NCBI GenBank assembly: GCA_021295775.1
Contig: JAGWBS010000002.1
Coordinates: forward strand, 31,986 to 95,985
Direction: 5' to 3'
From: Pseudomonadota bacterium
Lineage (GTDB): Bacteria > Myxococcota_A > UBA9160 > SZUA-336
Length of the DNA stretch: 64,000 nt
The notes beneath the pieces were generated by a model. The model ran no database searches, had not been told where the DNA came from, and worked only from the letters and a program-made list of their open reading frames with translations. A program made the translations under genes and the position numbers. This document shows, one piece after another, positions 23,681 to 37,977 of this stretch; position 1 is the first letter of the stretch; the number at the start of each line of letters is the position of its first letter.

Positions 23681-23756
23681 AGGCAGCTTCGGAACACGCG
23701 TGCGAGAGCAGTTCGAGCCGGACCGGGGGAGAAACCGTCAGGTGGTCAGCGGATCC

Positions 23757-24623
23757 ATGAAGTCCCCCTCGCTTTCCCTGCTCGCGAGCCTCTTGTGCGC
23801 CTTGCTCGTCGCGGCCGGCTGCTCCGCCAAGCGGCCCGAACTCCCCAGTACGTCGACGCCGCAAGTCCCCTCCGAGATGCCCTCCTCGGAGCGCAGCGCC
23901 GAGGGCCCCTCCGGCGGCTCCGGCCAGCAGTCCGGCGGCGGCGCGAGCGCGGGAGCGGGGAGCGCATCCGGCGGCTCCGCCGGCCTCGGCGACGAACGCT
24001 CTTCCCTTGGCGTATCCCCACCACCCGGCTCCGGCGCGGGCGGGAGCGCCGGCCCGGGTTCCGAAGCTCCCACCGCCTCGCGGGACGGCTCCGGCGCAGG
24101 CCCGACCCGGACCGAGCGCATAGAGGTCCTGGACCGGCGTTACTACGGCGTGCTCAGCGGCGGTGGATCCGGTGGCGATCCCGGCGGCGGCAGCGGCGCG
24201 GGCGGATCGCACAGCGGCACCGCCGGCGACGGCGGCGACGGGACCGCCGGCGAAGACGGACTCTCCGCCTCGCGTCCCGCCCTGGGAGTGCGAGGCGGCG
24301 AGAAGTCCGGCCGCGACGGCGAGCCGTCATCCGCGGCCGCCTCCGGAGTCTCTGGCGGCGAAGACTCCGAAGCCGGTCCATCGACCGGCGACCAGAGCCG
24401 GCCCTTCGAAACTTCGGGCAGCGGCGCGAACCCGGAGGACATCCCGCCGGTCGACAACGACGACGAGTTCGCGCGCCAGCTCCGCCGCGCGGCGGAAACC
24501 GAGACCGACCCCGAGCGCCGGCGCAAGCTCTGGAACGAGTACCGTCGCTACAAGGGCTTGCCCGAGCGAGCGGAAACCCAGCAGAGTGAGGAGGACGAGA
24601 CTCCTCGAGGAGACGACTCATGA
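23757..24623 (+). CDS. Gly/Ser-rich low-complexity lipoprotein with conserved-looking charged C-terminal helix
   Basis: ATG at 23757 within track ORF 23700..24623. Lipoprotein signal MKSPSLSLLASLLCALLVAAGC. About 200 aa of G/S/A/P/D-rich sequence follow. C-terminus: DDEFARQLRRAAETETDPERRRKLWNEYRRYKG. High GC3 in this frame. Confidence 0.65.
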   Translation: MKSPSLSLLASLLCALLVAAGCSAKRPELPSTSTPQVPSEMPSSERSAEGPSGGSGQQSGGGASAGAGSASGGSAGLGDERSSLGVSPPPGSGAGGSAGPGSEAPTASRDGSGAGPTRTERIEVLDRRYYGVLSGGGSGGDPGGGSGAGGSHSGTAGDGGDGTAGEDGLSASRPALGVRGGEKSGRDGEPSSAAASGVSGGEDSEAGPSTGDQSRPFETSGSGANPEDIPPVDNDDEFARQLRRAAETETDPERRRKLWNEYRRYKGLPERAETQQSEEDETPRGDDS

Positions 24624-25843
24624 GAGAACAGCCCGGCCCGGCCGCGAGATCCCTGGCTCTGGTCCTCGCCGCCGCCGTCTTCTCCGCGGCTTGCGGCGCC
24701 ACGGCCACCGGCCCGGCCCCGTCGGTCGTCGGCCCGAAGAGTTCGACCCAGGCCGAAGCGGAGGCGTCCGCCCCCCTCGCCGGAGGCGGCACGCTCGAAG
24801 TCGTCGTGCCGGTCTTCGATCCCGGACTGCCCGAGGACGAATCTTCCGAGGTCGACAAGGGCGTTTTTCCCGAGCTGCGAAAAGCCGAGGCGGTGCGCTT
24901 CGCCCAGAAGCTCAGGCTGGAACTCGAGTCGACCCGCGCTTTCGAAACCGTGCGCGTGGTTCCCGACGCCGAGAGCGCCGCCGATCTCTACCTGCGAGGC
25001 GAGATCCTCCATTCGGACGGCGCGACCCTGAAGATCCGCTTGACCGCGGAGGACGCCTCCAACCGTCGCTGGCTCTCCGAAACCTTCTCCCGCAAGGTCG
25101 GCCCGAGGTTCTTCGAGAGCCCGCGCAACGCGGGGCAGGACCCCTACGACCCGCTTTTCGCCGAGGCCGCTGAGGCGGTGGCCGACAAGCTGCGAAAGCT
25201 CGACCCCGAGCGCCTGGCCGAAATCGAGCGGATCGGGGAGATCCGCTTCGCCCGCAGCCTCAGCGAAGAGGCCTTCGCGGACTACGGAGGCTGGAGAAAC
25301 CGGCAGTTCGTGCTGACCGGGTTCCCCGACGAGAACGATCCGATGCTCAAGCGCGCGCGCGCGGCGCGCGTCCGGGACCGCATGTTCGTCGACGACTGGC
25401 AGACCTGGTACGAGGGCTTCTCGGGGGAGATGGACGAGAGCTACCGGCAGTGGCAGGAGCAGAGCCTGACCGAGGTACTGGCGCACCGTCAGGCCCGCAA
25501 CGAAGCCATCGCCAAGGCCGTGGTCGGAGCCGTCCTGGTCGCCGGCGCCGCGGCCGCCGCATCGCAGGGGACGGACCTCGGCACGGCGGGCGCCGTCGTC
25601 GGCGGCGTGGGGGCGATCGCCGCCGCCGCCCAGGCGCTCGAAGCCCGCAGGCAGGCCAAATTCCACCGCGAAGCTCTGCACGAGATCGCACAGTCCATCG
25701 ACGCCGAAATGGCCCCGAACGTCATGCGGCTGGAGGAGCGCGAAGTGGAGCTGACCGGCAGCGCCGCCGAGCAGTTCCGTCAGTGGAGGGCTCTGCTGCG
25801 CGAAATCTACGCCGAGGAAGCCGTCCCCGACGTCGATCTCTGA
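24620..25843 (+). CDS. Lipoprotein with C-terminal Gly/Ala-zipper hydrophobic segment (unknown function)
   Basis: 407 aa. ATGA overlap with the upstream stop. Signal/lipobox LALVLAAAVFSAAC. Glycine-zipper-like AVVGAVLVAGAAAAASQGTDLGTAGAVVGGVGAIAAAA near the C-terminus. Confidence 0.7.
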   Translation: MREQPGPAARSLALVLAAAVFSAACGATATGPAPSVVGPKSSTQAEAEASAPLAGGGTLEVVVPVFDPGLPEDESSEVDKGVFPELRKAEAVRFAQKLRLELESTRAFETVRVVPDAESAADLYLRGEILHSDGATLKIRLTAEDASNRRWLSETFSRKVGPRFFESPRNAGQDPYDPLFAEAAEAVADKLRKLDPERLAEIERIGEIRFARSLSEEAFADYGGWRNRQFVLTGFPDENDPMLKRARAARVRDRMFVDDWQTWYEGFSGEMDESYRQWQEQSLTEVLAHRQARNEAIAKAVVGAVLVAGAAAAASQGTDLGTAGAVVGGVGAIAAAAQALEARRQAKFHREALHEIAQSIDAEMAPNVMRLEEREVELTGSAAEQFRQWRALLREIYAEEAVPDVDL

Positions 25844-25849
25844 GACCGC

Positions 25850-27328
25850 GTGCCTGACCCGACCAACGACCCGGACCCGCGCGGGAAATCCGAAGCTCTC
25901 GACGACGCCAACGAACGCGCCTGGGCACGGCGCGGGAGATATCTCGGCGGGGCCGCCGGGGTGCTGCTGGCGACCGTCGTCGCCGTCGTCGGGATGAGCG
26001 TGTTCTTCCCCGGCGCGGACGCTACCCACTCCGATCCCCCCGAAACCGAAGTTCCGCCGGAGTTGCCGGTTCCGGCCCCCTTTCCCGACCGCGAGGCCCG
26101 CGAACTCTTCCTGCAGGCGCTCGAGGACTACCGCGTCGGACCCAAGCCGGAAGTCGAGTCCGAGGCTTTCGCCGCCTGGAGTTCCGAGGCCCGGGCGCGT
26201 CTCGAAGCCGGCGAGAAGGCCGCGGTGGAGGCCTTCGCGAACAGCGCCTTCGGCGAGGCTCTGCGACTCCTGACCGAGACCGCCGAACGCGCCGAGCGCG
26301 AGCTGGAGTCCCGCGACACGGCCTTTCGCGAAGCCCTCGACGACGCCGAGACGGCCCGCGCGGCCGCGGATCACGCGCGCGCATCGAGCCGCATCGCTCA
26401 GGCCCTGAAATGGAAGCCCGCCGACCCCGAGGCGCAGGTCCTGGCCCGGCGAATCGACGAGCTGCCGGCGGTCGCCGAGGCACTGGAAGAGGCCCGCGTG
26501 GCGCGCGCAGAAAACCGCCCCCGGCGCGAACTCGAAGCCCTGCGCAAGGCCCTCGCCGCGGATCCCGACCGCCCCGACGCGAGAGCCCGGGCGGAAGCGA
26601 TCTTTCGGGATCTCGCCGCGAAACGCTACGCGCGCGCACTGAACCGGGGTCTCGCCGCCGCCTCGGCCGGGGACCTGGACCGCGCCCGGGCCCGGCTGGC
26701 CGATGCCCGGTCCCTCGCCCCCGACCGCGAAGAGACGCTCGCGCTCGAGCGCGAAGTGGAAGCTCTGGCCAGACGCGGCGAAGTCCGGCGCGCTTTCGAG
26801 CGCGCCGAAGCGGACGCGCTCGAAGACCGCTGGCGCGAAGCCGCCGCCGGCTACGCCGCCGTCCTGATGCAGGATCCCGTCCACGCCCCGGCTTCCGGAC
26901 GCCTGGACCGCGCCCGGGAAATTCTCGCCACCCGGGCAGCGGTCGAGGGGCTGCTCGCCCGGCCCGAGCGTCTCGCCGAGGCGGGGGCCGAGCGCGCGGT
27001 CGCCGCCCTGATCGAACGAGGTCTCGCGCTCTCGGCACACAGTCCGAGCCTGGCCGGCTCCCTGCGGGAACTCGGCCGCCAGAGCGAGCGCTACCGCAGA
27101 GAGATCAGCGTGCTCGTGATCTCTGACGGACGCACCAGCGTCGCCGTCCGCGGCCTCGGGCGCATCGGCGAGGTTGAAAACAAGTCTCTTCGGCTGCGCC
27201 CCGGCCGCTACACTTTCGAGGGTAGGCGCAAGGGCTATCGCGACAAGCTGGTCGCCGTCGCGCTGACTCCCGAGGACGACGGCCGGGAGATCGAGGTGAG
27301 CTGTGACATCCCTCTCGAAACCAGGTGA
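25850..27328 (+). CDS. Single-pass membrane protein with long Ala/Arg/Glu-rich helical (coiled-coil/TPR-like) region and C-terminal PEGA-like beta domain
   Basis: 492 aa with a GTG start. TM segment YLGGAAGVLLATVVAVVGMSVFF. About 330 aa of helical repeats follow. C-terminus ISVLVISDGRTSVAVRGLGRIGEVENKSLRLRPGRYTFEGRRKGYRDKLVAV resembles a PEGA domain. Confidence 0.65.
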   Translation: MPDPTNDPDPRGKSEALDDANERAWARRGRYLGGAAGVLLATVVAVVGMSVFFPGADATHSDPPETEVPPELPVPAPFPDREARELFLQALEDYRVGPKPEVESEAFAAWSSEARARLEAGEKAAVEAFANSAFGEALRLLTETAERAERELESRDTAFREALDDAETARAAADHARASSRIAQALKWKPADPEAQVLARRIDELPAVAEALEEARVARAENRPRRELEALRKALAADPDRPDARARAEAIFRDLAAKRYARALNRGLAAASAGDLDRARARLADARSLAPDREETLALEREVEALARRGEVRRAFERAEADALEDRWREAAAGYAAVLMQDPVHAPASGRLDRAREILATRAAVEGLLARPERLAEAGAERAVAALIERGLALSAHSPSLAGSLRELGRQSERYRREISVLVISDGRTSVAVRGLGRIGEVENKSLRLRPGRYTFEGRRKGYRDKLVAVALTPEDDGREIEVSCDIPLETR

Positions 27329-27410
27329 ACTCGTGAATTCCCGGCGGACCGGGCGAGGTCCGCGGCGCGCCCGGTCCGAGTCCTCGCCGGCGGGCGACTG
27401 AAGCGAATCC

Positions 27411-28487
27411 ATGCCCTTCCGACGCCGCGAGCCGCCCGGCACCAACCTCGCCCTGCTGGACGTGATGTCCTGCGGGCTCGGCGCCGTGATCCTGGTGCTG
27501 ATGCTCGCCAAGCCTCATCTGGCGACCACCGAGATCCCCGCCCAGGCCGAAGTCCTCGAGGCCGAACTGGTCGGCTTGAACGCCCGGCGCGAAGCGCTGA
27601 ACGCCGAGCTGGCCCGCGCCGAGAGCGAAGCCGAGCGCGAGCGCGTGCGCGTGCTGGCCCTGCGCCGGCGCAGCGGCGTGCTCGAGGCCCGCCGTCGCGA
27701 CCAGTCCCTCGAGACGGCGCAGCGGCGGAGTTCCCTGTCGGCGGTCGAGAGCCTGCTGGAAAACCGTCCGGACCCGCCGACCGCCCCGACGCCCGACACG
27801 GTCGAGTTGGAGGCCAACAACGAGGCCGAGTACCTGATCGGCCTGAAGGTCGAGGGCCGGCGCATCGCCATCCTGATCGACGCCAGCGCCTCGATGACCG
27901 AGGAGAGGCTGATCGAAGTAATCCGGCGCAAAACCGGCACGCCGGACGAGCGTCGCGCCGGCCCCAAGTGGCAGCGCGCCCGCCGCGTCCTGCGCTGGCT
28001 CCTGGCCCGCCTCCCCCCCGACTCCCAGGTCGCGGTCCTCACCTACGCGGAGAAGGCCGAGTTCCTGGGCGAGCAGCGCTGGACGGACGCCTCCGATTCC
28101 GCGGCCCTCGGCGCTCTGGCCGTGGCGCTCGACGAGGTCGATCCCCGGGGTCCGACGAACTTCCGCGCCGGTCTCGACGCCGTCTGGGCGGAGCGTCCCG
28201 ACAGCCTCTACGTGGTCACCGACGGCCTGCCCACCCAGGGACGCGAGAGGAGCTTGCCCCGCCGATTCCTGAGCGGGATCAAGGGCGGCTGCGGGAACTC
28301 GAACACCATCTCGGGGGAATGCCGCCGGGCGCTGATGAACGAGGCCATCGACCGGAACTGGAACGGGCGGGTCGCGAACGCCATCCTGCTGCCGCTCGAA
28401 GGCGATCCCGAAGCTCCGGCGGTCTACGCGAACTGGACGAGAGGCACGGGCGGGCGCCTGCTCGCGCCGAGCCCGGACTGGCCATGA
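27411..28487 (+). CDS. ExbD/TolR/MotB-like Asp-TM anchor + coiled coil + VWA (MIDAS) domain protein, paralog 1
   Basis: 358 aa. N-terminus MPFRRREPPGTNLALLDVMSCGLGAVILVLMLA is a short basic tail followed by LLD at the start of a single TM helix. Coiled coil: EAELVGLNARREALNAELARAESEAERERVRVLALRRR. VWA domain with MIDAS DASAS (IAILIDASASM), a later T (GPTNF) and D (VVTDG). Confidence 0.75.
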   Translation: MPFRRREPPGTNLALLDVMSCGLGAVILVLMLAKPHLATTEIPAQAEVLEAELVGLNARREALNAELARAESEAERERVRVLALRRRSGVLEARRRDQSLETAQRRSSLSAVESLLENRPDPPTAPTPDTVELEANNEAEYLIGLKVEGRRIAILIDASASMTEERLIEVIRRKTGTPDERRAGPKWQRARRVLRWLLARLPPDSQVAVLTYAEKAEFLGEQRWTDASDSAALGALAVALDEVDPRGPTNFRAGLDAVWAERPDSLYVVTDGLPTQGRERSLPRRFLSGIKGGCGNSNTISGECRRALMNEAIDRNWNGRVANAILLPLEGDPEAPAVYANWTRGTGGRLLAPSPDWP

Positions 28488-29455
28488 GACGGCGGCGGCG
28501 CGCGTTCGACGTCTTCAGCATCTCGTTTCTGGACGCGATCGCCTGCGGTTTCGGCGCGGTGATCCTGCTGCTGATCGTCAGCCTGAACGCCGACCGCGCT
28601 CCGGCGGGAGCCCCGCCCGATGTCTCCGCCCTGCTCGACTCGGCCGTCGAAACCCGCCTCGAGACCACCGCCCTGAAAGAGCGTCTGGAACTCAGCCGGT
28701 CGGTGGACGCCGATGCCCGCGCCGAGGCGGCGGAACTCGAAGCGCGCATCCTCGCGGCGAGGGCCGCCTACGAAGCCGACCGCCGGGAAGCCCAACGGCT
28801 CGAGCGCCGACTGGCGAAGCTCATCCCGCCCGAAGAGCGCCCGGCCAGCGCCGCCACGCGCACCCCGGGCCCGGCGGAGGAACGCGACGACGAAGTGGGC
28901 GGGATCCCCGTCGGCAGCGAGTACGTGATCTTCGTGATCGACACCTCGGGATCGATGCGGAGCATCTGGGAAAAGGTCGTCGGGCGCCTCGAAGCCGTGA
29001 TCGACGCCCACCCGACGGTCAGCGGCTTTCAGGTCGTCAACGACAACGGCACCTACCTGCTCCCCGCGTACAAAGGGCGCTGGATCTCGGACACCCCCTC
29101 GCGCCGCCGCAGCGTCAAGAAAATGCTCCGGAATTGGAACAGCCTGTCCAACAGCAGTCCCGTCGAAGGCCTCGAAGAGGCCCTGGAACGCTACGCCCGT
29201 CCCGGCCGCAGGCGCTCGGTGTATGTATTCGGCGACGAGTACACCGGCGGCTCGTACGACGTGGTGCTCGATTCGCTGGAGCGCCACAATCGGGACCCGG
29301 TCAGCGGGCAACCGCTGGCGGAGGTTCACGCCCTGGGCTTCTTCTCGACCGCGGGGGCGACGAGCGCGAGCTACCTGCTGTCGTCGGCGCGTTTTTCGAT
29401 CCTCATGCGCGAGGTCGTGCGGCGCAACCGGGGAACCTACCTGACCGTGCCCTGA
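28484..29455 (+). CDS. ExbD/TolR/MotB-like Asp-TM anchor + coiled coil + VWA (MIDAS) domain protein, paralog 2
   Basis: ATG at 28484 (ATGA overlap with the paralog 1 stop), in frame within track ORF 27968..29455. N-terminus MRRRRRAFDVFSISFLDAIACGFGAVILLLIVS. Coiled-coil segment present. MIDAS DTSGS (VIFVIDTSGSM). 323 aa. Confidence 0.75.
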   Translation: MRRRRRAFDVFSISFLDAIACGFGAVILLLIVSLNADRAPAGAPPDVSALLDSAVETRLETTALKERLELSRSVDADARAEAAELEARILAARAAYEADRREAQRLERRLAKLIPPEERPASAATRTPGPAEERDDEVGGIPVGSEYVIFVIDTSGSMRSIWEKVVGRLEAVIDAHPTVSGFQVVNDNGTYLLPAYKGRWISDTPSRRRSVKKMLRNWNSLSNSSPVEGLEEALERYARPGRRRSVYVFGDEYTGGSYDVVLDSLERHNRDPVSGQPLAEVHALGFFSTAGATSASYLLSSARFSILMREVVRRNRGTYLTVP

Positions 29456-29518
29456 TGCCCGGAGCGGGCTTGGCGACCCGACCTCGCGCCGGCGGGGGCG
29501 CGTGGCAGGGACGCCGTC

Positions 29519-30301
29519 TCAGCCAGTCCCGTCGGGATCGGGGGCTGGAAGCGCGCTGATGCGCCCGACCAGCACCTCGTCGCAGTAGCGGCGGGTGTCG
29601 ATCACCAGGCCGTCCTGCAGGCGCTGAAGCTGGTGCAGGAAGAACATCAGCACGATGCTGATCAGCAGCGCCACCAGGGTCGAGTTGAAGGCCAGGCCCA
29701 GACTCTCGGTCATCGCGAAGATGTCGCCCGCCAGCGCCTGGTCCGCCTGGGACAGCGCCCGCCCGATGCCGCGCACGGTGCCGATGAAGCCGATCGAAGG
29801 GATCGCCCAGATCAGGTAGCGGATCAGCGAGTTCTCGGCCTCCTGCTGGGCCGCCAGAGCGTCCACGCCGGCCTCGATCGCCTCGGAGGCGTTCTGCACG
29901 TCGCGCTGGACCGCGAAGCGCCGCAGACCGGCGGCCAGCGTCTGGACCAGGGGCGTGCGCCAGACGTCGGGGCGCTGGCGTCCCAGCTCCTCGAAGCTCC
30001 GGACGGCCCGGGCGGGATCGCCCGAGACGTCGGTGTCCTCGAGCAGGTCGGTGTCGAACAGGTACTGCTGGCGCAGGATCGTCCGGTACTTGTCGAAGAT
30101 CAGGAACAGCCCCCAGACCATCAGCACCAGACAGATTTCCTGCTCGTAGTCCTTCAGTACGATCCAGAGATTGCGCGGAGTCGCCATGCCCGCCTCCATG
30201 GCGGCCTCGATCGACCGCTCTGCCTGGGGGCGGACCCAGCCCAGGTAGGCGGCGTGGATCCCGACGATGGAGGCGGCCAGGGCGGCCAGGCTTCGAAACA
30301 T
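29519..30301 (-). CDS. MotA/TolQ/ExbB-family proton-channel protein, 4-TM MotA-like topology (orphan stator A-subunit)
   Basis: 260 aa. Four hydrophobic helices with a cytoplasmic insert between TM2 and TM3. Family core: LIWAIPSIGFIGTVRGIGRAL...ESLGLAFNSTLVALLISIVLMFFLHQL. Confidence 0.75.
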   Translation of the reverse strand: MFRSLAALAASIVGIHAAYLGWVRPQAERSIEAAMEAGMATPRNLWIVLKDYEQEICLVLMVWGLFLIFDKYRTILRQQYLFDTDLLEDTDVSGDPARAVRSFEELGRQRPDVWRTPLVQTLAAGLRRFAVQRDVQNASEAIEAGVDALAAQQEAENSLIRYLIWAIPSIGFIGTVRGIGRALSQADQALAGDIFAMTESLGLAFNSTLVALLISIVLMFFLHQLQRLQDGLVIDTRRYCDEVLVGRISALPAPDPDGTG

Positions 30302-30302
30302 T

Positions 30303-30431
30303 TCAGATGTCCACCGGGAAGGTCGTGGGCGAGTTCAGACTGAGGCGCCCCTGCGCGATCGCCACCCCGGCCGCCGCGGCGGCCGTCACGGCCAGGGCGA
30401 CCAAGAGCCAGAGAATGCGCCGACGCTGCAT
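30303..30431 (-). CDS. 42-aa single-pass membrane micro-protein (not in ORF track)
   Basis: Hand translation gives MQRRRILWLLVALAVTAAAAAGVAIAQGRLSLNSPTTFPGDI*. GGAGGA lies 6 nt upstream of the ATG (30431). It starts 9 nt after the upstream stop (30441), and its own stop is 1 nt before the MotA-like ATG (30301). High GC3. Confidence 0.5.
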   Translation of the reverse strand: MQRRRILWLLVALAVTAAAAAGVAIAQGRLSLNSPTTFPVDI

Positions 30432-30440
30432 GGTCTCCTC

Positions 30441-32420
30441 CTATAGATAGCGGCCGATGCGAAAGCCTAGGTCATCCCGGCGGCCGCCGAACCCTTCGCG
30501 GCGGGCGGCGCGAAGTCCGCTGCGCGTCCCCGTGCGCCAGCTCGCTCCCTTGACCACGTGAACGCTTCCGTAGCCGGGACCCAGGGGGTCGATTTCGACC
30601 GATCCCGGGGCCGGAGGCTCGAGCAGATAGAAGTCGTGGACCCACTCGCTGGCGTTGCCGGTCAGGTCGAACAGTCCCGAGCGCTCGGGCGCGAAGCTGC
30701 CGACCGGGGCGAGCCGGGCGAATCCGTCCGAGTAGCGGGGGACGTAGGTTTCGACCGACCCCTTGGCAGTCTCGTCGGCGACGTTGCCCACTCCGGACGG
30801 CAGCGTATCCGAGTCGCCCCAGGGAAAGACCGTCCGGCGCCCGCGCCCGGCCTGCCGCGCCAACCACTCCCACTCCGCCTCGGTCAGCAGGCGGTAGCCG
30901 TCCGGCGGATCCTGGCCTCCTCCCGCGTGGGCGTAGAACGGAGTCAGGCCCTCCCGGACGCTCAGCCAGTCGCAGAACGCCACCGCCTCCGCCCAGGAGA
31001 CCGAGGTCGCGGGGTGGTCGCCCCGCTCCCCGGGGTGCCCGGGGCGGAAGCTGCGGAACTGCTCCAGGCTGACTTCGTGCAGTCCGGCGTAGAACGGCCG
31101 GCTCAGCCGGACGTCGCGCTCGAACTCGTTGGCGCGCTGTCCCTTCTCGCCGCGCGGATCGCCCATCCGGAACGCCCCCGCCGCGCCGGGATTGAGCAGC
31201 ACCAGGCTCGCGCCGACGGAGTTGGTGTAGCGGACGGGCGCGCGCGCCAGCCGCGCCTCCCGCTCGGTCAGCAGGGTCTCCCGCAGCAGCGTGGCCCGCT
31301 CGGGGTCCGGAGCGAGCGTGCGGCGGACCGTCTCGTAGCCGCGGCGCTGCAGCTCGATCCGCGTTTCCTGCGCCGGCAGAACCAGATCGAGGGGGGTCCG
31401 GCCGGCGGGCTCGCCGTCGATCCGCACCTCGGAAACGGGATCGGATTCGATCCGCGCGCGCCCGGTCTTGCGGGTCAGGTGCAGCTCCAGGGTCCGCGTC
31501 TCCCCCCGGTCGAGGGTCGCGTGCAGGGTGCGGGGAAAGTAGCCCTCCAGCGAGTAGCGCACGCTGTGCTCGGCGTGCGCCGCTACGCGCTCGGGATTCG
31601 AGGCGCGGAATCCGTCGACCAGCAGCAACCCTCCCGCTGGGGACAGGTCGAAGCGCAGCTCGGCGGAGGGAGGGACCAGGCGGTAGTTGCGGCGGGCCAG
31701 GGGCCGGTCGCGGGTCAGCTCCAGCGTGTCGCGGACGGGCGCGTAGCCCGGCAGTCGGAGCGCGACCGGATAGCGCCCCGCGGGCAACTCCCGCTCCAAA
31801 GGCGTCGGCAGGGGGTCGAGGCCTTCGATCTCGACCGACGCCCCGCTCGGCTCGGAGCGCAGTTCGAGCCGTCCCCGGGCGCGACTCAGCGGCAACGAGA
31901 CCTCCAATCGGGCGCCCCGCTCGACCTGGATGTCGAGGTCGGCGATCTCGTACCAGTCGTGGCGGGCGGAGAGACGGTAGGCTCCGGCGTGCAGTTCGTG
32001 CTCCAGGAGCGCGCCGATGCCCGCCAGCGCGTCGTCCACGTACCAGCGTGTTTCCACCTCGGGAGGATGCGTGGAAGCGTGGACCCGTCCGGGCAGCGGC
32101 TCGAGCGCGACGCTCAGGGTCCGGCCGGGGGTGTGGATCGGCAGCGTCCTGGCGGCGAACCCGGGTGCCGAAACGCGAACCTCCAGTTCGCCCCCGAGAT
32201 CGTAGACCCGGCCCAGGATCACCAGCGCCCAGCCGGACGCGAGTTCGATCCGGGCGTTCTCCGACGCCTCCGGGGGTTGCACCTCGACGGGCGTGCCGCG
32301 CGTCAGCGCCAGCGTCACGCCCAGCACCAGCGCGCCGACCGCCAAGCCCAGCGCGGCGTAGAGGGAGCGGAGCCACCAGCGCCTCTGCACCCTTCGAAGC
32401 TGGCGTTCAGTGGGAGACAT
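30441..32420 (-). CDS. Membrane-anchored PEGA-repeat protein with C-terminal FGE-sulfatase-like (SUMF1/GldK-like) domain lacking the FGE cysteine pair
   Basis: 659 aa. TM segment WWLRSLYAALGLAVGALVLGVTLAL. At least 3 PEGA-like units (e.g. LRSEPSGASVEIEG...LPAGRYPVALRLPGYAPVRDTLEL; IESDPVSEVRIDGEPAGRTPLDLVLPA...LQRRGYETV). FGE-like C-terminus: HPATSVSWAEAVAFCDWL...YRLLTEAEWEWLAR...GNASEWVHD...VVKGASWRTGTRSGLRAARRE...DLGFRIGR. No Cys occurs where FGE has its CxxxxC. Confidence 0.8.
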   Translation of the reverse strand: MSPTERQLRRVQRRWWLRSLYAALGLAVGALVLGVTLALTRGTPVEVQPPEASENARIELASGWALVILGRVYDLGGELEVRVSAPGFAARTLPIHTPGRTLSVALEPLPGRVHASTHPPEVETRWYVDDALAGIGALLEHELHAGAYRLSARHDWYEIADLDIQVERGARLEVSLPLSRARGRLELRSEPSGASVEIEGLDPLPTPLERELPAGRYPVALRLPGYAPVRDTLELTRDRPLARRNYRLVPPSAELRFDLSPAGGLLLVDGFRASNPERVAAHAEHSVRYSLEGYFPRTLHATLDRGETRTLELHLTRKTGRARIESDPVSEVRIDGEPAGRTPLDLVLPAQETRIELQRRGYETVRRTLAPDPERATLLRETLLTEREARLARAPVRYTNSVGASLVLLNPGAAGAFRMGDPRGEKGQRANEFERDVRLSRPFYAGLHEVSLEQFRSFRPGHPGERGDHPATSVSWAEAVAFCDWLSVREGLTPFYAHAGGGQDPPDGYRLLTEAEWEWLARQAGRGRRTVFPWGDSDTLPSGVGNVADETAKGSVETYVPRYSDGFARLAPVGSFAPERSGLFDLTGNASEWVHDFYLLEPPAPGSVEIDPLGPGYGSVHVVKGASWRTGTRSGLRAARREGFGGRRDDLGFRIGRYL

Positions 32421-36600: not shown

Positions 36601-36931
36601 AAGGCCTTCCCTCGGCGTCCAGGTCCACCCAGCGGTCGGGCCGGCCGTCGCCCGAGCGGTCCTCTTCGACGCGGATCTCCCGGCCGTCCTCGAAGAAGCG
36701 CCACTGGTCGACCCGGCCGTCGCGGTCGCCGTCCAGCTCGATGCGCTCGATCTCCCCGTCCAGGAAGTGGTCCCAGCGGTCGGGGGAGCCGTCCCCGTCG
36801 AGGTCCGCGACCTGCCGCAGAAGTTGTCCGGTCGCGGGGTCGAACTCGCGAACCACCCCCGCCCGGGCCAGGTCGGGCCCGAACGCCGACAGCAGCAGGC
36901 CAGCGGCGCAGGCCCGAGCGATCACGGGCAC
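33614..36931 (-). CDS. Giant secreted tandem-repeat protein (about 1105 aa, about 40 Dx[DN]xDG Ca-loop-like repeats, Cys-containing C-terminal region)
   Basis: Lies in the frame of track ORF 33614..38071, whose part upstream of 36931 overlaps tonB in another frame and is junk. Candidate starts are GTG at 36931 (VPVIARACAAGLLLSAFGPDLARAG, signal-like) or GTG at 36925 (GTGA overlap with the tonB stop). Repeat period is about 24-25 aa, e.g. EEDRSGDGRPDRWVDLDAEGRPSLQR / ERDTNADGAVDTWVEFAGGQRSVQR. Confidence 0.75.
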   Translation of the reverse strand: MPVIARACAAGLLLSAFGPDLARAGVVREFDPATGQLLRQVADLDGDGSPDRWDHFLDGEIERIELDGDRDGRVDQWRFFEDGREIRVEEDRSGDGRPDRWVDLDAEGRPSLQRDDSDFDGRPDTHLYFEAGVRTRLERDPDGNGKPNDVTLYRGDRVYQKWLDPDEDGRPEALSTFDAQGNKQLEEQDTTGDGELNLRIHYAEGLKIRTEEDTSGDGSPDRIGHYRGEALAREEVDVDHDGRHETLLFFRDGRRVRQERDADSDGRIEIAVHYDEREVRVREEIDSDADGVFDVWREYRDDALERETRDADGDGTADVDDRYRDGAKVASERDTNADGAVDTWVEFAGGQRSVQREDRDYDGRVDVEYDFLAGQLAEQREDSDGDGALELRTRFADGQPSEREQDRNADGRVDFTEKLRDGRPLQQFLDEDFDGRTDLWSFFEDGRMHKQERDTRGDGQPDQWVMLDPVSGEPQRVLEDTSGDGRVDTWTDYAGGARTRVETDTNGDGEPDRTARLSGELAAGLTEDRNFDGRVDYRAEYDAQGSIARDFSDEDFDGVFEAIVHYRRERRARVELDADGNGVPEVSTLYDDSGERRVREERDADGDGFAEAVSEFEAGRIARQMRDASGDGAFDQWTEFDAAGRPRLERVDTNGDGRTDAAKTYAQGIQTGQAEDRDFDGRDDHIGEFRHGVQVRLRSDTDFDGEFDSLSHYEDGRLARQESDLDGDGRFETVSHYLDGALSRVESDADADGRVDKIDLYAAGESEPREVRRDTDGDGRFDVRVYLEAGVELRQEHDTDADGRVDRWLDLAPDGKIALERRDTDANGEPDLSLVFDAAGEPRERIEDLDEDGEPERVTRFADGVAAELEEDRGAGCLDHRQRFSPDGQVVEDAVDSDGDCAYDTFTFLAGGEVRRVERDTNQNGWIDVWEHLEGGVKRIQAEARGSCTRPNIVFLFDGERIAAQEEDRNCNGLPDRLTRFDAEGNAQWRCTPRTRIEYEAGVIRVSVEDSSRDGYGDRRNLYEDGVPLRMEADTNADRRPDVWVDYAAGAPSVQAEDRDFDGRVDVRFDLASERAVEVDGEAAPTGTKEFGALSCGGFSDFWKR
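33725..36805 (-). repeat. Protein-level tandem repeat array (about 40 units of roughly 72-75 nt) inside the giant CDS; boundaries approximate
   Basis: By-eye enumeration of 40 clear and 3 degenerate units, each with E-x-D-x-[DN]-x-DG-x-x-D-x-[WF/aliphatic]...G. The units are divergent at the DNA level, so this is not a simple nucleotide repeat. Confidence 0.7.
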
Positions 36932-37977
36932 CGATCCGGATCCGGGCAACTTCCGTCTTGAGTGAAGATCAGGCGCATCGGCTTGTTCACGATGTAGTGG
37001 ATGCTCGTGGGCGGAGGCGGAAAGGGGCTGGCGTGCCGGAACGCCCGGCTGGCCGTCTCGCCCAGCAGCGTGTCGGTGATTCGCGCAACCTCCACGTCGT
37101 GCGCGGATCCGCCGCGGTCCAGCCGGAAGCTCAGCGTCACCTGGCCGTCGCCCAGTTCGGGGGGCACGGACCAGCGCTCGTACACGCGCCGGCGGATCCG
37201 CTCCAGGTACTCCACGCAGACGGGGTCGGCCATGCAGTCTCTCTGCTCTCCGACCAGCGCGCCGCGACGGCCCGCGCCGTCGAGCAGCGCCCGGGAATCC
37301 CCGACCTCGACGTCGGCCACGCGCGCGCCGATCACGTCGCCTTCGACGGCGTTGTCGGCGATCACTCCGCGCGCGACGTTCGGAGCCGAGACCAGCGCGG
37401 GGCGCGGGCTGACCTCGGGGGAAGCGGCCTCCATCAGCCTCGGGCCGCGGGTCGTCGGCGCGGCCCGCACGCGGGTGACCTCGGCGCTCGCGGCCCGGGG
37501 AATCCGCTTGGGCTGCGCCACGGGTCGCTCGGAGAATACGCTCAGCGCGCGGGCCTCGACCTGCATCCGGCGGGGAGAGGCGGTCACGGCGGTGCGCGTG
37601 ACTTCGGCGAGCTGGGTGCTTTCCAGCCGCTCGACCCGGCTCTTCTCCACGATCTCCGGCTGATGGGTCGGCCGGTGGCGGATCACGCTGGCGTCCGGCA
37701 CGCGCTGCGCGAGCCGCTTGCGCCGCAGCTCGGGCGGCTGGGGCACGGGCTCGGGCTCGAACACCCGCACCAGCACGACCTCCTCCCGGGGGAGAACCGC
37801 GCCCAGGATCACGTTCCAGAACGCCGCCAGCAGCGCCAGGTGCAGGCCGATCGACACCACTGCGATCGCCCAGCGGGGCACCCGCCCGCCGCGATCGTCG
37901 AGCGGGTCGTAGCGGGGGACGCTCGCGGCGATCTCCGGCCCGAGGGGGCCGCTGGCCAGGGGACTCGCGCTCGCCAT
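36922..37977 (-). CDS. tonB: TonB-family energy transducer
   Basis: 351 aa. N-terminal anchor RWAIAVVSIGLHLALLAAFW contains the SxxxH motif (SIGLH). Pro-rich stretch EPEPVPQPPE. C-terminal TonB_C-like domain: YLERIRRRVYERWSVPPELGDGQVTLSFRLDRGGSAHDVEVA...ASRAFRHASPFPPPP. Confidence 0.8.
   Translation of the reverse strand: MASASPLASGPLGPEIAASVPRYDPLDDRGGRVPRWAIAVVSIGLHLALLAAFWNVILGAVLPREEVVLVRVFEPEPVPQPPELRRKRLAQRVPDASVIRHRPTHQPEIVEKSRVERLESTQLAEVTRTAVTASPRRMQVEARALSVFSERPVAQPKRIPRAASAEVTRVRAAPTTRGPRLMEAASPEVSPRPALVSAPNVARGVIADNAVEGDVIGARVADVEVGDSRALLDGAGRRGALVGEQRDCMADPVCVEYLERIRRRVYERWSVPPELGDGQVTLSFRLDRGGSAHDVEVARITDTLLGETASRAFRHASPFPPPPTSIHYIVNKPMRLIFTQDGSCPDPDRCP

Follow-up and report, generated by a model that had tools for sequence, protein, structure and literature searches.

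In one class of predicted bacterial motors (Williams-Jones et al., Mol Biol Evol 2025;42:msaf138; PMC12204202), a TolQ-like pentamer is combined with two paired, transmembrane-anchored von Willebrand factor A (vWA) proteins, and the helices of these proteins stand in for TolR/ExbD. The DNA considered here, a window of 64,000 nt from contig JAGWBS010000002.1 (assembly GCA_021295775.1, positions 31,986-95,985), contains a channel gene and two transmembrane-vWA genes of this TPH-vWA class; all coordinates given below are window positions. Next to them lies a gene for a 659-amino-acid protein, termed PEGA-FGE, which carries PEGA modules and a domain with the fold of the formylglycine-generating enzyme (FGE). 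The published account describes a three-gene core only, and the words FGE, PEGA and sulfatase are absent from its text. PEGA-FGE, its near-absolute linkage to the motor genes and its place directly upstream of the channel gene are thus not described there. Motor function is a prediction in both cases.

The second system that invites comparison is the T9SS (type IX secretion system) and its gliding relatives. PorK has an FGE-like fold without the catalytic cysteines and serves, next to the PorLM motor, as a docking hub with no enzymatic function (PMC12421860). According to a further paper, disulfides join GldK and PorK, on a moving track, to partners in the outer membrane (PMC12635249). PEGA-FGE shares with PorK, GldK and GldJ the Cys-less FGE-like fold next to a proton-driven motor, and the gene order is parallel. 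PorK and GldK, however, are outer-membrane lipoproteins with large insertion domains and with a Cys that forms a disulfide to outer-membrane partners (SprF/PorG), and they are assembled with PorN into 32-33-mer rings that are driven by PorLM/GldLM. PEGA-FGE instead displays an inner-membrane transmembrane anchor, a stalk of PEGA modules and a compact head that has neither these insertions nor that Cys, and its neighbor is a true TolQ-family channel.

The domain architecture itself is on record. In passages of the paper on the 'OCTIN superfamily', PEGA is listed among the N-terminal extensions of Cys-less FGE domains (Nguyen et al., PLoS Biol 2018; PMC5915273), and the PEGA-FGE protein has this combination. 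The same passages assign neither a genomic context nor a function to the PEGA class; its connection with a motor cluster is new. No paper was found that connects the architecture class of 2018 with the motor core of 2025. What is added here is the case for PEGA-FGE as a core subunit, a survey, residue by residue, of the losses and retained features of its head, and a formal rejection of GldK orthology.

Linkage of PEGA-FGE with the motor genes

The PEGA-FGE gene (30441..32420, minus strand) accompanies the motor genes in ∼125 of 126 testable loci. A forward scan of one genome per species yielded 18 full-length orthologs, together with 62 loci that show an FGE-domain match only and serve as controls. 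Wherever an ortholog locus has enough flank, the genes share a strand and run in this order: lipoprotein, lipoprotein, TPR-PEGA, PEGA-FGE, (micro-ORF), TolQ-like, (extra gene), vWA1, vWA2, where ORF stands for open reading frame. TolQ-like or vWA genes were found beside none of the 62 controls. A reverse search of metagenome loci, starting from the TolQ-like gene and demanding a PEGA-FGE gene on the same strand that ends no more than 700 nt upstream, detected PEGA-FGE directly upstream in 51 of the 52 loci with room for it; vWA genes lie downstream in 42/42 metagenome loci with room. Identical architecture was seen in three further lookups, one of them a Limisphaerales record.

The phyletic profile is equally consistent. 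Among 401 genomes of the window's phylum, strong matches to PEGA-FGE (full length, E <1e-190) and to the TolQ-like profile (E <1e-90) are found in exactly the same six genomes. The first-pass annotation had placed the gene just upstream of a stator-type channel and had tied its reading to co-occurrence with this MotA-like gene. Both points hold: a MotA/TolQ/ExbB-type gene is present at 29519-30301 with a 42-codon micro-ORF in between, and co-occurrence is near-absolute in both search directions as well as in the profile. By these comparisons, PEGA-FGE is a core, conserved component of the TolQ-like/TPH-vWA gene cluster and a candidate subunit of the predicted motor.

The arrangement in the window itself (23700-32420) is different. 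Nearly all other loci form one co-directional operon; here, the module of PEGA-FGE, micro-ORF and TolQ-like gene is shifted behind vWA2 and inverted. A relative of the same class (locus L175) has the cluster split in another way, into two convergent halves. That all parts are still together in both genomes despite two rearrangements argues for a linkage that is functional and not accidental.

The window's head, in a tree built from 84 FGE domains, groups with Sneathiella (Alphaproteobacteria) and with metagenome-assembled genomes labelled Methylophaga and 'delta proteobacterium'. The cultured Sneathiella sp. HT1-7 carries the short-form operon in full (L002). The system was found in 0/14 genomes of the window's own family. 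Together, the tree placement and this absence suggest that the short-form cluster, as in the window, was transferred horizontally.

Of the 25 genomes in one sister family, 20 carry a second, more remote subfamily of TolQ-like proteins (E ∼1e-35 to 1e-43), for example at L173 8394-9722 and L174 6651-10060 (genomes G271 and G221). Its downstream neighbors carry ExbD-like N-terminal helices, and PEGA-FGE was not found at these loci. This second tier is probably a different system, another undescribed motor variant.

Architecture of the protein and lost chemistry of the head

The G+C content of the window (∼72%) results in many spurious ORFs that overlap the PEGA-FGE gene. The assignment of the reading frame is based on the ORF, on Pfam matches and on full-length homologs of 27-82% identity, and the ATG at 32420 agrees with the homologs' conserved N-terminus MSx..FE..L..AR.RQ. 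In Pfam, the FGE-sulfatase domain is matched at 3.4e-32 (residues 414-655) and PEGA at 1.5e-25; the scores for PF03781 (112.5 bits) and PF08308 (89.3 bits) lie above the gathering cut-offs of 23.3 and 20.8 bits, respectively. A full-length AlphaFold2 model was built from a 33-sequence alignment and has a mean predicted local distance difference test (pLDDT) score of 84. It displays a transmembrane helix within residues 3-39, five beta-sandwich modules, a short helix and the FGE domain, in that order.

All parts are encoded on the minus strand. The single transmembrane helix (∼residues 17-40; 32301..32372), supported by the modeled helix and by the long-form homologs described below, follows a basic cytoplasmic tail, RRVQRRWW. 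The periplasmic stalk (residues 41-385; 31266..32300) is modeled with pLDDT >90 as five PEGA-type modules at about 41-108, 109-179, 180-250, 251-316 and 317-385. When modules are scanned singly against Pfam, modules 3 and 5 are clear PEGA domains (2.9e-11 and 6.9e-9) and module 4 is a weak match (0.021), and the PEGA likeness of modules 1 and 2 is one of predicted structure only. The homologs have 4-5 PEGA stretches each, and Foldseek matches the stalk to tandem Ig-like rods of pilins and adhesins. The FGE-fold head (residues 397-659; 30444..31232), defined by the domain model, Foldseek and the family profile, is at the C-terminal end. The N-terminal helix, the three or more PEGA-like domains and the FGE/SUMF1-type domain that had been noticed from the sequence are therefore borne out.

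Topology can be read from long-form homologs (∼800 amino acids), which have an additional domain ahead of the transmembrane helix. As a profile, this N-terminal domain matches the FHA domains of EssC, FhaA and GarA (1.7e-4 to 0.03), the best match in the PDB being of the EssC type. This FHA-like domain is cytoplasmic, which sets the N-terminus inside and the C-terminus outside and places stalk and head in the periplasm. On the model, then, PEGA-FGE is a predicted bitopic inner-membrane protein with a short basic cytoplasmic tail and a periplasmic stalk that carries the head at its tip.

Modeled alone, the head has a pLDDT of 95 and a predicted template modeling (TM) score of 0.93. The closest structures by Foldseek (TM-scores 0.63-0.78) are Treponema denticola Tvp1 (2y3c; 0.78), PvdO (5hha; 0.72) and pFGE/SUMF2 (1y4j), which are similarly compact; true FGEs follow at 0.69-0.73 and PorK is ranked 33rd with 0.54. 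The structure search suggested at the outset thus confirms the FGE fold and ranks Tvp1, PvdO and FGEs above PorK. Unlike PEGA-FGE, these three proteins are single-domain soluble proteins or lipoproteins with neither a transmembrane-PEGA stalk nor a motor context. FGE itself (SUMF1, with the enzymes of S. coelicolor and T. curvata) shares the fold (TM-score ∼0.7) and is the best match at the profile level, human FGE being the top PDB entry for the family profile at 9e-31.

The chemistry, in contrast to the fold, has been lost. When the protein is aligned with human FGE, T630 takes the place of the Cu-binding residue Cys336 and G635 that of Cys341, as had been anticipated from the lack of Cys after GASW. 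Both positions lie in the former active-site loop (residues 625-641, GASWRTGTRSGLRAARR; 30498..30548), and this loop is without Cys in all 17 alignable orthologs. S591 occupies the position of the O2-pocket tryptophan, Trp299 (W228 of T. curvata FGE, tcFGE), where Ser or Ala is present in all 17. The only Cys of the 659 residues is C483, in a conserved FC(N/D)W motif, and the disulfide partners of FGE are absent. What is retained is the O2-pocket serine (human S333, tcFGE S266), as S627, and the equivalent of Glu130.

There is also a deletion. Residues 459-465 face 61 residues of human FGE, such that ∼54 residues are missing between the EVT and VSW motifs. The loop lengths of L086, the true FGE reference of the tree, are left out of account, as its domain cut was truncated at the N-terminus. 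In tcFGE, the substrate CxPxR is bound at its Pro and Arg by Trp84, Phe86, Met99, Ala101 and Trp108/109, and these residues fall in the 61-residue interval when placed by residue numbering, not by direct alignment of tcFGE. By that numbering, the missing segment appears to carry the substrate groove. Because both Cu-binding cysteines, the O2-pocket tryptophan and this segment are gone, the head is predicted to be unable to make formylglycine, while it keeps the FGE fold. The presence of the catalytic residues after all, which had been considered, is excluded for the equivalents of Cys336, Cys341 and Trp299.

Other positions are conserved within the family. D565, D585, G588 and E592 are invariant. 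The two structural Ca2+ sites of human FGE, which are reported to be N259/I260/D273/F275 and N293/G296/A298/E300 (Dierks et al. 2005), would be largely represented: positions N259/D273/F275 and N293/G296/A298/E300 align to N546 or D549, D565 and F567, and to D585, G588, A590 and E592. N259 and D273 of human FGE are disease-mutation sites. A charged motif, R423-x3-G427-x-R429-A-N431-E432, is specific to the family; its conservation across 55 orthologs is 93% or higher, and its residues are rare in other FGE domains (3-19%).

Other genes of the cluster

In the window, the plus-strand part of the cluster begins with two lipoprotein genes. One encodes a low-complexity lipoprotein (23700..24623) whose conserved C-terminal helix segment is kept in most ortholog loci, and the other a conserved 407-amino-acid lipoprotein (24620..25843), detected by tblastn at 1e-37 to 3e-100 in ortholog loci with its cluster position unchanged. 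They are followed by a gene for a bitopic, helical/TPR-like protein with a C-terminal PEGA-like domain (25850..27328), assigned by synteny and by homologs that show TPR and PEGA; in the canonical order this TPR-PEGA gene is the immediate upstream neighbor of PEGA-FGE. Next are vWA protein 1, a transmembrane-anchored predicted axle subunit (27411..28487; VWA_2, 6.9e-6), which is assigned by synteny and by the class described in PMC12204202, and its paralog vWA protein 2, also transmembrane-anchored (28484..29455; VWA_3, 1.1e-4, and synteny). The vWA genes are paired, and no tolR/exbD-type gene is found in the cluster interior. On the minus strand, the TolQ/MotA-like ring subunit (29519..30301) is identified by Pfam MotA_ExbB (1e-13) and by its co-occurrence with the PEGA-FGE gene.

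Between the ring-subunit and PEGA-FGE genes lies the micro-ORF of 42 codons (30303..30431, minus strand), which encodes a signal peptide and a C-terminal ...SPTTFPVDI. The PEGA-FGE stop codon, TAG, is followed directly by GGAGGAG and the ATG of the micro-ORF, whose TGA is one base from the ATG of the channel gene. From these junctions, the three genes are predicted to be translationally coupled in the window. ORFs that end in FP(V/I)DI or a close variant are found at the same place in 56 loci, a count that is not an independent frequency since the selection demanded a P[VIL][DE] motif near the end; the C-terminus is nearly always ...(S/T/A)FPVDI. The mature peptide of the window's micro-protein may be only ∼16 residues. 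The FPVDI tail loosely echoes the sulfatase motif (C/S)xPxR with the charge reversed. Docking of the tail (S/T-F-P-V-D) in an ancestral (C/S)xPxR groove is a weakened proposal, as the segment that apparently binds Pro and Arg is deleted. The acidic tail would also suit the metal site of a vWA domain, and this receptor is as plausible as the head groove.

The long forms of PEGA-FGE occur in clusters with additional parts. Their TPR-PEGA partner has an N-terminal Ser/Thr kinase (3e-26), and an extra gene (∼380-480 amino acids) with, in L003, a C-terminal FHA domain is inserted between the channel gene and vWA1. Among loci with enough flank, the kinase is found only together with the extra gene (7/7). 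Examples are L003 (7239-9500, 9482-11899 and 13092-14453), L004, L012, L017, L147 and L166. The kinase on one PEGA protein and the FHA-like domain on the other suggest that the two act as a pair.

Several neighbors are less constant. The window's TonB-like gene, two Asp-rich repeat genes and an ExbB/ExbD pair do not travel with the cluster in the other loci examined. The TonB-like gene (36922-37977) is at the head of a minus-strand operon, and in two other lineages the cluster comes after a TPR gene that faintly matches TonB_C (L169 571-1899; L171 1-1421); proteins of the TonB_C type may be associated with the cluster loosely but repeatedly. Two more small genes (∼210-250 amino acids, no Pfam match) come after vWA2 at L167 9435-10759, L169 12095-13512 and L171 12139-13613 and were not seen in the window. 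A defense system such as Zorya does not account for the cluster: the channel is only a marginal match to ZorA (0.001) and the other cluster proteins match none of its components.

Rival identities and proposed role

The parallel with gldK-gldL order, drawn when the gene was first annotated, stands as an analogy of gene order, with an FGE-like gene, a ring subunit and axle subunits recalling gldK-gldL-gldM. Membership in the GldK family fails, and the channel is of the MotA/TolQ/ExbB type and not GldL. That PEGA-FGE might be a true GldK/PorK ortholog, and the cluster a divergent T9SS/gliding apparatus, has some basis in the best single-sequence PDB match (PorK, 1e-13) and the best NCBIfam match (GldK, 1.2e-15). 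The latter, however, is a score of 57.8 bits on TIGR03525, confined to profile positions 219-339, against an equivalog cut-off of 350; real GldK proteins score 569-586 bits and unrelated FGE-domain paralogs ∼21-114 bits. The family profile favors true FGEs over PorK (3e-25), as does the Foldseek ranking, and in the tree the PEGA-FGE family is a clade of its own (100/98) to which GldK is not sister. PEGA-FGE has a transmembrane helix and no lipobox Cys, where GldK sequences have SASC or YSC lipoboxes, and the ∼100-residue insertion and KGC loop Cys of GldK align to gaps. The Cys of this loop may be the disulfide-forming GldK Cys343 (PMC12635249). The neighbors, too, are a MotA_ExbB-family channel and vWA proteins instead of gldL/M/N (porL/M/N). 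With score, profile, Foldseek, tree, sequence features and neighbor genes all against it, orthology with GldK/PorK is rejected and can for practical purposes be set aside. A cryptic enzyme, either a Cys-independent periplasmic sulfatase maturase or an oxidase of another substrate, such as a cluster product, is the identity that public annotation implies; JGI names homologs 'formylglycine-generating enzyme required for sulfatase activity', and the NCBI label is 'SUMF1/EgtB/PvdO family nonheme iron enzyme'. The window's genome does encode three Cys-type sulfatases (CSPTR, CSPTR and CAPSR, at C60:14873-15874, C3:76267-77481 and C2:13224-14147), and the assembly, which is 89% complete, yielded neither a canonical FGE nor an anaerobic sulfatase-maturating enzyme (anSME). 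The picture is similar in three carriers that have 19-61 sulfatase-family matches: neither another strong, full-length match to an FGE domain nor an anSME above the cut-off was seen in them. Against this stand the losses in the head and the single Cys of the whole protein. The iron ligands of EgtB-type enzymes, moreover, lie in the DinB domain, which PEGA-FGE does not have. Sulfatase-family matches per carrier genome range from 1 to 61 and PEGA-FGE does not track them, two carriers (G116 and G196) having only 1-2; the phyletic profile tracks the motor gene. No sulfatase gene is directly beside any of the 105 ortholog loci or the window's cluster; in the whole of this sequence (1.2 Mb) there is one weak match, ∼7 kb off. 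Sulfatase-family matches are absent from the window's contig, and those of the genome are on the three other contigs named. An adjacent sulfatase regulon, the observation that would have pointed the other way, is therefore not seen, and the first-pass remark that the window holds no sulfatase gene extends to the whole contig. An enzymatic role of this kind is very improbable, and neither public label is supported by the sequence; such mislabels would distort inventories of sulfatase maturation in marine genomes.

A sensory or regulatory role deserves more weight, though it too is rather unlikely. The head would bind a periplasmic ligand and the transmembrane helix would switch the motor, in long forms by way of the FHA-like domain and the partner kinase. 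Fusions of Ser/Thr kinases with FGE domains are common (P0066, P0067; PMC5915273), and the long-form clusters add a kinase, an FHA-like N-terminal domain and an extra gene, which in L003 has an FHA domain at its end. A cytoplasmic signaling domain is, however, absent from the window's form and from 25 of the 47 loci with enough flank, the tail being only ∼16 residues. By consensus reading, the FHA-like domain lacks the usual GR...SxxH phosphothreonine-binding motif and is closest to the EssC type, and a stalk of five modules is what one would expect of a spacer more than of a sensor.

The only other FGE-domain gene of the window's genome combines a DinB-like N-terminal half with an FGE-like C-terminal half, the pattern of the ergothioneine sulfoxide synthase EgtB. 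It is located ∼4-5 kb past the end of the window (G000:C82 ∼99770-101450; L176 1273-2949).

The preferred reading is that PEGA-FGE is a non-catalytic periplasmic scaffold or docking subunit of the predicted motor, to which a probability of roughly 0.55 is given. It draws on the lost chemistry and on the gene linkage, and it supports the first-pass proposal of a structural or binding module in place of a maturase. The motor is predicted to consist of a TolQ-like pentamer and a heterodimeric, transmembrane-anchored vWA 'axle'. The stalk of five modules would hold the FGE-fold head well away from the inner membrane, where the head may bind one or more of the vWA heads, the two lipoproteins, the TPR/PEGA partner and the micro-protein. 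The work of the proton-driven axle could then be applied against a fixed element.

Some points weigh against a scaffold. Bacterial FGE-domain proteins as a rule lack the cysteines, and a Cys pair of the FGE type is present at the catalytic positions in only 1 of 67 other FGE-domain sequences sampled. Some Cys-less FGE-fold domains sit in enzymes (EgtB, and the context of PvdO), so other chemistry may be possible. The aligned transmembrane region shows no SxxxH motor-binding motif of the TonB/TolA type, and docking of the helix to the motor in the manner of TonB/TolA is for that reason rejected. Finally, a genome that has three Cys-type sulfatases and no recognizable FGE or anSME leaves a small opening for a maturase.

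A more elaborate version of the scaffold can be formulated, which is speculative and on balance improbable. A 5:2-type proton motor may have acquired the FGE fold as its working partner in the periplasm for a second time and independently, with copies of PEGA-FGE, held by their transmembrane helices (and in some lineages equipped with YscD/EssC-like FHA domains), forming a periplasmic ring or cage around the TolQ-like/vWA motor and their heads either engaged by the rotating axle or capturing the FPVDI tail of the micro-protein. If this were true, the cluster would be the counterpart, outside the Bacteroidota, of the hub-and-motor principle of PorK/GldK. The parallel with the T9SS, if functional, is of independent origin.

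Besides the T9SS and gliding apparatus, this is the second case in which an FGE fold is found beside a proton motor. Motors of a TolQ-like ring and a vWA axle are a predicted proton-driven class that is widespread in marine and other diderm bacteria. As PEGA-FGE accompanies the motor genes as constantly as these accompany each other, it is a candidate for the element that the motor works on or against.

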